A DNA stretch of 42,657 nt from sequence record PP925827.1. One strand, given 5' to 3'. Origin of the DNA: Escherichia phage Flotzy. Shown here piece by piece: positions 4,449 to 6,095 of the stretch (its first letter is position 1; every line of letters starts with the position of its first letter). The notes under the pieces are model-generated. The model saw only the letters and a program-made list of their open reading frames with translations, did not search any database and was not told the origin of the DNA. Made by a program: the position numbers and the translations under genes.

Positions 4449-4561
4449 CCATTAGCGCGATCGAGTAGAAATCAATCGGTTTTCAAAAGTAAAAGTCAAT
4501 AGCTTACTTTCCTAAATGGTAGTAATTTATTTTACATTGACTTGTATGAAAGAGAGCCGAA

Positions 4562-5329
4562 ATGGAAGCTAGAGGGAATTATCGTTTAAGGCCAATTTCA
4601 AACCTTGGAAGTGGGACATTTGGACGCGTAGAGAAAATCGAACTCTACAATTCAAGTGGGGATTTTTGCGGCTTTTACGCCCGCAAAAGTCTAGCAGTTA
4701 ATCATGATATTGTGGGTTCAATATTCACTCCTGATGACTGGAGAAGAAGATTTGAACGAGAAGTGACTTACCAATCTCGCTGTCGGCATTCTAATGTTGT
4801 CCCAGTATTGATCCATAATCTCAATGCTGAGCATCCGTGGTTTGTAATGCCTCTGGCAAATACGGATCTCATGAAGGAGATTGAAGGTAACGCATTAAGC
4901 GATGATGAGAAACTATCAGCGATTAGAATGATGTTACTCGGCGTCGAATATATCCACAGTCGCGGATATCTTCATCGGGATCTCAAACCAGAAAACATCC
5001 TTAAATTCGATGATGGACAATACAAGGTGTCTGACTTTGGTTTGGTGAGGCATGATGATCCTAACGCGGCCTCAGCAGTTTTAACCAATATTGCTGTCAG
5101 CATGGGAACTGATGGGTATAAAGCTCCAGAGGTCAATAGTGGTCTGTATAGTCCAAAAACTGACATCTATGCAGCGGGTGCCATAGTGAATATTCTAAAT
5201 TTGAGCCATGTGGATGGTATCGATGCTTTAATAGGTAAGGCGACAGCTTACAAACCGACTGCGAGATATGATTCAGTCAGTGAGATGCTTGCCGATCTTA
5301 ACGCCATAATTGAACGGAGGCAGGCATGA
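4562..5329 (+). CDS. Hanks-type (eukaryotic-like) Ser/Thr protein kinase, kinase domain only
   Basis: GSGTFGRV (Gly loop), ARK (beta3 Lys), FEREV (alphaC Glu), HRDLKPEN (catalytic loop, Ser/Thr type), DFG, APE, DIYAAG; 255 aa with no extra domain. Confidence 0.85.
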   Translation: MEARGNYRLRPISNLGSGTFGRVEKIELYNSSGDFCGFYARKSLAVNHDIVGSIFTPDDWRRRFEREVTYQSRCRHSNVVPVLIHNLNAEHPWFVMPLANTDLMKEIEGNALSDDEKLSAIRMMLLGVEYIHSRGYLHRDLKPENILKFDDGQYKVSDFGLVRHDDPNAASAVLTNIAVSMGTDGYKAPEVNSGLYSPKTDIYAAGAIVNILNLSHVDGIDALIGKATAYKPTARYDSVSEMLADLNAIIERRQA

Positions 5330-6066
5330 TAAATCTTCTGAGTTGCGGCTTTTTCTCATGCCCTAAAGATTCCGTCCGCGGCAATCAGGACTCATATGTA
5401 TTGCCAACTCCGACAGGAAAGGGGTTTTTATTTGCAGTCGCTGATGGTGTCGGTTCATACGAGGGTGCTAAAGAGATAGCTGATACTGCTACTTCAGCTC
5501 TTCGTTCTTTCAAGAACGACAACTTCATTGACATCCAAAAAACATTCCAGGATCTCAAAGAAAAGGTTGATGCGTTTGTAGATGCTAAATCTGAATGGAT
5601 CAATGCGGCGACCACGCTTTCATTCTGTTTCATCGACAATGAAGCTTTGTATGTTGGACATGTTGGAGACACCCGCGTCTATGTTAAAAAAGGCGCAAAG
5701 CTTCAGTTGATCACCAAAGATCACACCCAACACCAAGAACTTTTTGATGATGGGATTTACACCAAGAAAGAGTTACGTGACCTGCCAGGTAAAAACACTC
5801 TCACTTCGGCGATATCCAGAAACATTGCTCTACGCTTCCAAAGCGTCACGTTGCCCTTATCTGAACTGGTTGATGAAAATGGACTCATTACTGTTTACAT
5901 CATGTCTGATGGAGCCCATCACTTCTGGGAACAAAGACCAAGGCTTTCCCTTGAAACTATTTCGAAAGCACCAAAATTCGCAGCAAGCTTGCTAAGAAGG
6001 ATAGAACGGTCTGGACCCATAGATGATTACACACTGGTCGCTGTATCTTTCCAAACTTCGAAATAG
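5326..6066 (+). CDS. PP2C-family (PPM) Ser/Thr protein phosphatase
   Basis: AVADGVGS, GDTR and MSDG motifs typical of PP2C metal-binding sites; start overlaps kinase stop (ATGA). Confidence 0.8.
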   Translation: MINLLSCGFFSCPKDSVRGNQDSYVLPTPTGKGFLFAVADGVGSYEGAKEIADTATSALRSFKNDNFIDIQKTFQDLKEKVDAFVDAKSEWINAATTLSFCFIDNEALYVGHVGDTRVYVKKGAKLQLITKDHTQHQELFDDGIYTKKELRDLPGKNTLTSAISRNIALRFQSVTLPLSELVDENGLITVYIMSDGAHHFWEQRPRLSLETISKAPKFAASLLRRIERSGPIDDYTLVAVSFQTSK

Positions 6067-6072
6067 CAACAA

Positions 6073-6095
6073 ACCGCCTCCGGGCGGTTTTTTAT
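6073..6095 (+). terminator. rho-independent terminator after kinase/phosphatase operon
   Basis: ACCGCC-tccg-GGCGGT hairpin followed by T-run. Confidence 0.8.

Follow-up and report, generated by a model that had tools for sequence, protein, structure and literature searches.

Why would a lambdoid phage carry a Ser/Thr protein kinase and a protein phosphatase side by side, each reduced to its catalytic domain, between its lysis genes and its cohesive end site? The question is raised by Escherichia phage Flotzy (sequence record PP925827.1), whose DNA was analyzed here as one stretch of 42,657 nucleotides, referred to below as the window. A Hanks-type kinase gene and a PP2C phosphatase gene lie at positions 4562–5329 and 5326–6066 of the window, and all window features for which coordinates are given around this locus are on the strand as presented (+). 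An earlier sequence-only reading had picked out this pair and suggested a phosphorylation-based exclusion or abortive-infection switch with the phosphatase as its antidote. We find the pair to be a self-contained, horizontally mobile two-gene unit which rides as a moron, or accessory cargo, on temperate phages and further kinds of mobile element. As to its function, we tentatively favor, by analogy with characterized kinase/phosphatase systems, an enzyme/anti-enzyme switch that would serve the exclusion or abortive infection of competing phages in a toxin–antitoxin-like manner.

Two bare catalytic domains

The first gene encodes a kinase of 255 residues that matches the Pfam Pkinase family (PF00069) with an E-value of 2.6e-30 and 106.1 bits, against a cut-off of 31.7, and the phage protein family phrog_2361 with an E-value of 2.4e-69. 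Across 35 homologues, down to 41% identity, the invariant residues are G16xG18xxG21xV23, K42, E67, H138-R139-D140, K142, N145, D158-F159-G160, E190, D201, and R235. These correspond to the Gly-rich loop, the β3 Lys, the αC Glu, the HRDxKxxN, DFG, and APE motifs, the Asp of subdomain IX, and the Arg of subdomain XI, that is, to the full catalytic set. The subdomain motifs on which the sequence-only reading had based its assignment (GSGTFGRV, ARK, HRDLKPEN, DFG, and APE) are all present and invariant across the family. Because an Arg precedes the catalytic Asp, the enzyme belongs to the RD kinases, and HRDLKPEN is a catalytic loop of the Ser/Thr type. The AlphaFold model (predicted local distance difference test score, pLDDT, of 88.4) has the bilobal kinase fold, with disorder confined to residues 170–178 of the activation loop. 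In a Foldseek search, the closest solved structures are those of Mycobacterium tuberculosis PknB (6i2p) and Staphylococcus aureus Stk1 (9ymt/4eqm), with an E-value of 4e-14 and a template modeling (TM) score of about 0.70. The profile and structure searches that had been proposed as a check thus agree on a Pkinase domain with a PknB/Stk1-like fold. Since this fold occupies all 255 residues, there is no room for a sensor, membrane, or recruitment domain, and the description of the protein as a bare kinase domain of about 255 residues holds on the evidence of both Pfam and the model.

The second gene encodes a PP2C (PPM) Ser/Thr phosphatase of 246 residues, likewise consisting of the catalytic domain only and matched by Pfam profiles and, below the equivalog cut-off, by an NCBIfam profile. 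It scores above the cut-offs of the Pfam families PP2C_2 (E = 9.2e-13; 48.6 bits, cut-off 24) and PP2C (27.8 bits, cut-off 20.3). The residues that are invariant among 29 homologues (D22, D40-G41, D115, D195-G196, and D233-D234) include aspartates that align with the metal ligands of tPphA (D18, D34-G35, D119, D193, and D231), and the identification as PP2C has stood up, with the short motifs on which it was based (AVADGVGS, GDTR, and MSDG) present and invariant in this family too. The AlphaFold model (pLDDT 92.7) has the PPM β-sandwich fold and lies nearest to tPphA (2j86), PstP (1txo), and Stp1 (5f1m), with TM scores of 0.73–0.81, so that profile and structure searches agree for this protein as well. 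The sequence-only reading had named a lack of conserved catalytic residues as a reason to abandon its proposal; the alignments find these residues invariant in both families. Judged from sequence and predicted structure, both enzymes look catalytically competent. As a separate observation, the phosphatase matches positions 275–519 of the 565 positions of phrog_5650, which hints at longer versions of the protein in some phages, perhaps fusions of kinase and PP2C.

The two open reading frames are joined by a translational-coupling junction (5316–5329), in which a GGAGG Shine–Dalgarno sequence (5316–5320) sits within the 3′ end of the kinase gene and the ATG of the phosphatase gene (5326–5328) overlaps the TGA of the kinase gene (5327–5329). 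The resulting ATGA, which couples both frames, can be read directly at 5326–5329, as had been claimed. Following the phosphatase gene, an intrinsic terminator (6071–6098; AAACCGCCTCCGGGCGGTTT then TTTATTGT) ends the cassette with a G+C-rich stem of 8 bp (6071–6090) and a T-run, in agreement with the strong terminator noted earlier. A search for structured RNA in and around the cassette gave a single, sub-threshold match, which falls on this terminator.

A mobile two-gene unit

The kinase family is compact. A word-indexed search yields about 65 clusters at 90% identity, and when 1.84 billion representatives are searched exhaustively with a profile, about 25–30 stand-alone kinases (representatives at 50% identity) of 244–263 residues are obtained, beyond which only generic multi-domain kinases are ranked. 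The phosphatase family comprises more than 280 clusters. To describe the surroundings of the pair, gene neighborhoods were examined in public assemblies, and the 80 best IMG/VR loci, with 38–93% identity to the kinase, were classified in bulk by Pfam counts and seed-based mapping; these are the viral loci referred to below. A PP2C gene lies directly downstream of the kinase gene on the same strand in 78 of the 80, the remaining two loci ending at a contig edge. Of these 78 loci, 63 have the ATGA overlap, as have 13 of 15 loci that were checked by hand. Over 71 loci, pairwise identities of the kinases and of the phosphatases correlate closely (r = 0.94), and the two proteins have diverged to almost the same mean extent, which indicates that the genes are inherited and constrained as one unit. 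The G+C content of the cassette is below that of its surroundings in all 15 hand-checked loci. No conserved third gene accompanies the pair at the viral loci, where the neighbors vary with the slot.

Three lambdoid slots account for most of the viral loci. In 27 of them the pair lies directly after the antiterminator gene Q and before the holin gene, as in Cronobacter phage phiES15. In another 22 it follows the spanins and precedes the small terminase gene, as in the window; this post-lysis slot is also used in prophages of Citrobacter, Pantoea, Photorhabdus, Klebsiella, and E. coli, next to four different terminase families. A further 11–14 loci have the pair directly after the CI repressor gene and co-oriented with it, and 14–17 are unclassified or end with the contig. 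The lambdoid slots are occupied amid different Q, lysis, and terminase families, and the orientation of the cassette is that of the adjacent operon in every classified locus. Clades mostly retain one slot, with several changes of slot among them. Lambda carries rexAB after cI, and in the Stx phages stx sits directly after Q. The stk kinase gene of phage 933W, which aborts infection by HK97, is also found after cI (PMC3564112).

The pair is not restricted to integrated phages. On a 37.8-kb phage-plasmid of Arsenophonus it stands directly after an S24 repressor gene and co-oriented with it, on a conjugative element it adjoins the integrase gene, and it also occurs on megaplasmids and on Acinetobacter plasmids of 8–19 kb. 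One of the latter carries the pair beside a RelE/ParE toxin–antitoxin module. On a 14-kb plasmid of A. baumannii (L031, 2722–4817), genes for an AAA ATPase and a ‘retron system putative HNH endonuclease’ lie directly upstream of the kinase and phosphatase genes; they are Septu/PtuAB-like and make up a small defense-like cluster with the pair.

How the pair came to lie in the window can be followed by comparison with related phages. The window is a lambdoid phage whose structural genes are 99% identical to those of mEp043 and mEp213, and whose late regulatory region is 96.5% identical to that of its nearest phage, Eeyore. The kinase/PP2C pair is absent from all three. Homology on the left flank stops at 4424–4435 (mEp237 and PHB10) and restarts on the right flank at 6124–6135 (mEp043 and Eeyore), which places the cassette at roughly 4449–6123, comprising an AT-rich upstream leader, the two genes, and the terminator. 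By direct measurement its G+C content is 0.434, about 10 points below the 0.533 of the flanks, and a profile runs at 0.40–0.44 over 4400–6000 and at 0.52–0.58 to either side, in line with the earlier remark that the pair is AT-rich relative to its neighbors. Searched as DNA against 50,697 phage records and 5,426 complete E. coli genomes, the 1.65-kb cassette gave no match. An identical kinase protein is found in Enterobacter-type prophages with the layout unchanged. The cassette is thus foreign DNA of deviant composition that separates genes found side by side in related phages. Eeyore is a natural, near-isogenic phage without the cassette and would allow a clean experiment.

To the left, the cassette is bordered by the last gene of the lysis cassette, an Rz-type spanin gene (3918–4448) with Rz1 embedded in it (4201–4347); both were taken from the open reading frames of the window, and the region is homologous to the spanin-annotated lysis regions of mEp237 and PHB10. 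The landmark to the right, outside the cassette, is the cos cohesive-end sequence GGGCGGCGCCGC (6176–6187), which aligns with GGGCGGCGCGCT, the 5′ cohesive site annotated where the phage LLS sequence begins, and is followed by the small and large terminase genes at 6290 and 6790. These coordinates fit the accessory slot between Rz and cos that had been proposed. The insertion is not a one-off event at this position: the cassette is widespread and occupies at least three lambdoid slots as well as plasmids.

Other genes were noted elsewhere in the phage. It encodes three DNA methyltransferases (2029–3057, 38618–39952, and 39891–41882), namely an N6/N4 enzyme, whose late-operon gene stands between those for Q and the holin, a Dam-like enzyme, and a C5-cytosine enzyme, which are probably anti-restriction cargo. 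The interval between Q and the methylase gene (1695–2029 in the window; about 4580–5340 in loci L003, L005, and L006; 2160–3590 in L001) differs among otherwise near-identical prophages: it holds HicAB in L005 and L006, an open reading frame for 201 aa in L003, and about 1.2 kb of small open reading frames in Eeyore, and measures only about 330 bp in the window. The early-left operon includes genes for an Rv2179c-like 3′–5′ exoribonuclease and a DUF2303 protein (30813–31385 and 33854–34684), both uncharacterized in lambdoid phages.

Transcription of the pair and its possible role

Terminators are a recurrent feature of the cassette. One is found within 150 nt of the PP2C stop codon in 40 of 56 representative loci, compared with 4.1 expected from shuffled sequences, and in 26 of 31 late-operon loci. 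RNA polymerase modified by Q reads through terminators, and the conservation of a terminator in late-operon slots therefore implies that Q-independent transcripts cross the cassette. In pAJ4132, the operon upstream of the pair is closed by a terminator of its own, which isolates the pair. Moreover, the copies on plasmids and on the conjugative element cannot rely on a phage late promoter, which favors autonomous transcription. Finally, the position after CI in 11–14 viral loci, like that after the repressor in the Arsenophonus phage-plasmid, is a slot expressed in the lysogen and was counted in favor of a switch.

Upstream of the kinase gene, a block at 4495–4531 is kept among relatives, with GTCAATAG at 4495–4502 and GTAATTTATT at 4522–4531. 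It has the form TAATGTCAATAG ... GTAAyTTATT, lies at −66 to −68 from the kinase ATG (about −68 to −30 in L009 and L012), and is common to three different backbones (the window, L009 from Citrobacter, and L012 from Pantoea); the variants from Klebsiella, those linked to cI, and those on plasmids lack it. The block does not fit the σ70 consensus, and neither strand of GTCAATAG gives a recognizable promoter; an operator, or a promoter of unusual type, would be conceivable. In the cI-linked clade, cI is separated from the kinase gene by a stretch with a short hairpin (AACCGCTTCGGCGGTT, then TTTGAG; L021, 7235–7315), which may attenuate read-through from the repressor promoter.

The closest experimentally characterized system is the kinase–kinase–phosphatase (KKP) prophage module, PfpC/PfkB/PfkA, described by Guo et al. 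in 2024 (PMC11341870). The KKP kinases are jointly toxic and phosphorylate proteins of replication, translation, and division; the PP2C enzyme PfpC neutralizes them catalytically, and inhibition of PfpC by Gp59 of phage T4 unleashes the kinases and triggers defense (PMC11341870). It is reasonable to regard the phosphatase of the present pair as the antidote to a harmful kinase, and KKP provides a direct experimental precedent for this view. Drawing on KKP and on what is established for RD-type Hanks kinases with PP2C partners (PknB/PstP and Stk1/Stp1), we propose that in the resting cell the phosphatase would keep both the cellular substrates of the kinase and its activation loop, which is conserved and bears Ser/Thr residues, in the dephosphorylated state. 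The pair would then idle as an enzyme/anti-enzyme couple similar to a type VII toxin–antitoxin system. Both proteins lack a sensor domain, so a trigger would have to work on the kinase or the phosphatase itself; the likeliest candidate would be a protein from an invading phage by which the phosphatase is inhibited or titrated away, in the manner of Gp59 and PfpC. The freed kinase might phosphorylate host proteins, phage proteins, or both, and thereby stop growth of the invader through exclusion or abortive infection, such that the lysogen population, and hence the prophage, would be protected.

In favor of such a switch are the intact catalytic residues and folds, the obligate pairing, the foreign and mobile character of the cassette, the terminator, the cI-linked slot, the plasmid copies, the toxin–antitoxin and defense neighbors on Acinetobacter plasmids, and precedents in KKP and in the defense kinases Stk2, PD-T4-6, and Mad6, which the kinase matches best in PADLOC. 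A number of observations weigh against it. Consensus scans of the window and six related loci revealed no σ70 consensus promoter upstream of the pair, and across 54 loci σ70-like promoters are not enriched upstream in a composition-controlled comparison with shuffled sequences (mean z 0.02; 5.6% of loci at p ≤ 0.05). Of the 63 classifiable viral loci, 49 lie within the Q-dependent late operon, always co-oriented with it. Among 300 neighboring proteins from phage contexts there are no known defense effectors, the PADLOC matches being orphan methyltransferases and helix-turn-helix regulators, and in Klebsiella prophages the post-lysis slot is shared with an Acb2/Tad1-family anti-defense gene (L024 and L025, 5261–5545), about 700 nt upstream of the kinase gene. 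Acb2 and Tad1 act as sponges against CBASS and Thoeris signals. The best PADLOC matches of the kinase itself (mad6, 1.4e-35; PD-T4-6, 7.9e-30; Stk2, 1.9e-25) span the generic catalytic core only, for example positions 12–201 of 327 in PD-T4-6 and 51–245 of 659 in mad6. The pair also departs from KKP in having two genes, kinase then PP2C, instead of three in the order PP2C, kinase, kinase; no second kinase was found in the window or in 78 related loci. In addition, PfkA and PfkB carry fused cold-shock (CSD) and FHA domains, respectively, both of which are needed for toxicity (PMC11341870), whereas Pkinase is the only domain detected in the kinase here. Lastly, one locus (L111, 4477–5175) has a frameshifted PP2C gene next to an intact kinase gene, which implies that the kinase alone may not be lethal.

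Alternatively, the pair might be transcribed with the late operon and serve the lytic growth of the phage itself, as a helper or a counter-defense. The kinase would then modify host metabolism proteins, nucleases, or defense effectors, like gp0.7 of T7, while its partner would contain collateral damage or remove phosphate groups placed by kinase-based immunity of the host. All 27 loci directly after Q, the position of stx in Stx phages, and all 22 after the lysis genes are co-oriented with late transcription; the lack of a recognizable promoter, the Acb2/Tad1-family gene in the same slot, and the non-defense character of the neighbors point the same way. We nevertheless consider this explanation unlikely, because the terminator after the pair implies Q-independent transcription, because the same cassette is found in the cI operon in 11–14 loci as well as on plasmids and a conjugative element that lack a lytic cycle, and because expression at the very end of infection would leave little time for host takeover. 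A narrower variant, which we regard as quite improbable, is a dedicated counter-defense device, in which the PP2C enzyme would erase signals like those of Stk2, PD-T4-6, KKP, or TerY-P and the kinase would inactivate defense or stress proteins of the host, both being expressed from the late operon or, in other clades, from the cI operon. It is compatible with the preponderance of late-operon loci, the want of a recognizable promoter, and the Acb2/Tad1-family gene, and would, if true, make this the first phage-borne kinase/phosphatase anti-immunity pair.

Two further explanations turn on the lysogen or its host cell. The balance of the two enzymes might tune the maintenance or induction of lysogeny, of the own or a co-resident prophage, by phosphorylating a repressor or a nucleoid-associated silencer. 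Precisely such a function, exerted on MvaU, is the second one of KKP (PMC11341870), some clades adjoin cI, and a tunable set-point would suit opposing enzymes. However, the immunity region is distant from most copies, the pair is also found on small plasmids that lack prophage functions, and it has no DNA-binding or substrate-recruiting domain comparable to CSD and FHA in KKP, so that we hold such a regulator to be rather improbable. Very unlikely, in our view, is a role in addiction, stabilization, or generic lysogenic conversion, with no part in conflicts between phages, whereby the pair would cause post-segregational growth arrest or alter host physiology (stress tolerance or persistence). 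Its presence on the small Acinetobacter plasmids, once beside RelE/ParE, would fit this role, as would a 3:1 bias of disrupted copies toward loss of the kinase, but the numbers are tiny, classical post-segregational killing requires a labile antitoxin and nothing suggests that the phosphatase is unstable, and integrated prophages gain little from addiction. The disrupted cassettes are four in all: besides the PP2C frameshift in L111, there is a nonsense mutation in the kinase gene of L054 (6001–6768) and a frameshift in those of L103 (5920–6749) and L085 (5150–5985). Three kinase losses against one PP2C loss are too few to serve as a signal of toxicity, and we did not use them as such.

If the proposed switch is real, it would be the simplest kinase-based immune or exclusion module known, made up of two bare catalytic domains without a sensor, and would raise the questions of by what means it detects an infection and through which substrates it halts a phage. 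Prophages of clinically important Enterobacterales commonly carry the pair: the phosphatase variant of Klebsiella pneumoniae alone is indexed in 171 contig-collection blocks, and there are further copies of the pair in Enterobacter, Citrobacter, E. coli, and Pantoea, in addition to the Acinetobacter plasmids. Given this spread, it could affect host range in phage therapy. Whatever its function, the family is a model of how a pair of opposing enzymes travels as a unit between phage slots.

Comparison with known systems

The sequence-only reading held that a pair of this kind is not a described defense system. This is no longer correct for the class, to which KKP (2024) and TerY-P belong, but stands for the minimal two-gene architecture: in a full-text literature search, which took in discovery papers from 2026 and had subscription journals outside its coverage, no two-gene phage module of Hanks kinase and PP2C turned up. 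The principle therefore has precedent, whereas, as far as the searched literature shows, neither the family with its minimal architecture nor its spread among lambdoid phages has been described.

PknB/PstP and Stk1/Stp1 are the cognate kinase/phosphatase couples of mycobacteria and Gram-positive bacteria. They provide the nearest solved folds and a model for antagonism through dephosphorylation of the activation loop, but they are chromosomal and their kinases are membrane-anchored with PASTA sensors, unlike the soluble catalytic domains found here on mobile elements. We rejected equivalence with these proteins, as the kinase reaches 100.6 bits against an NCBIfam equivalog cut-off of 450, and the phosphatase 83.4 bits (E = 1.6e-23) against 230 for the Stp1/IreP orthologues (Stp1_PP2C, NF033484). 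With these cut-offs missed by far, the pair is not orthologous to the housekeeping pairs.

Among kinases of phage conflict, Stk2, PD-T4-6, and Mad6 of MADS have additional C- or N-terminal modules and no dedicated phosphatase, and the C-terminal module of PD-T4-6 is absent from the kinase described here. Stk of 933W is, like it, a eukaryotic-like kinase of a lambdoid prophage, has a role in exclusion, and shares the post-cI position with some clades, but it has no partner phosphatase, and the pair in the window lies in the late region. Membership of the Stk family was rejected: the identity is 24% over residues 76–249 (68% of the query; E = 2e-5) and the PHROG families differ, so that the relation is one of superfamily only.

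The TerY-P systems resemble the pair in combining PP2C and a Hanks kinase in one operon, and a passage of PMC10542128, citing Gao 2020, gives versions of them as validated in anti-phage defense. They differ in other respects. The gene for the vWA protein TerY is absent from the cassette and its immediate vicinity, where the neighbors are Rz and cos/terS, and vWA is not among the 25 most frequent Pfam families of the 300 neighboring proteins. The TerY-P kinase ends in a C-terminal zinc ribbon or OB fold, whereas ours has no C-terminal extension, and the phosphatase has no match to the PADLOC TerY-P models at E ≤ 0.01.

KKP comes closest and lowers the novelty of the pair. Its published census applied a gene-length filter of 900–1300 bp (PMC11341870) and would not have counted the pair, whose genes measure only about 750 bp. 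KKP is carried by P2, P4, Mu, or Pf phages, as opposed to the lambdoid phages seen here. Both systems join prophage-borne Hanks-type Ser/Thr kinases, or a single one, with a PP2C enzyme (PF13672) in one operon, both are confined to Gram-negative bacteria, and both are mobile among temperate phages and other mobile elements. Moreover, tPphA (2J86), the template used by the authors of the KKP study, is also the structure closest to the phosphatase of the present pair.

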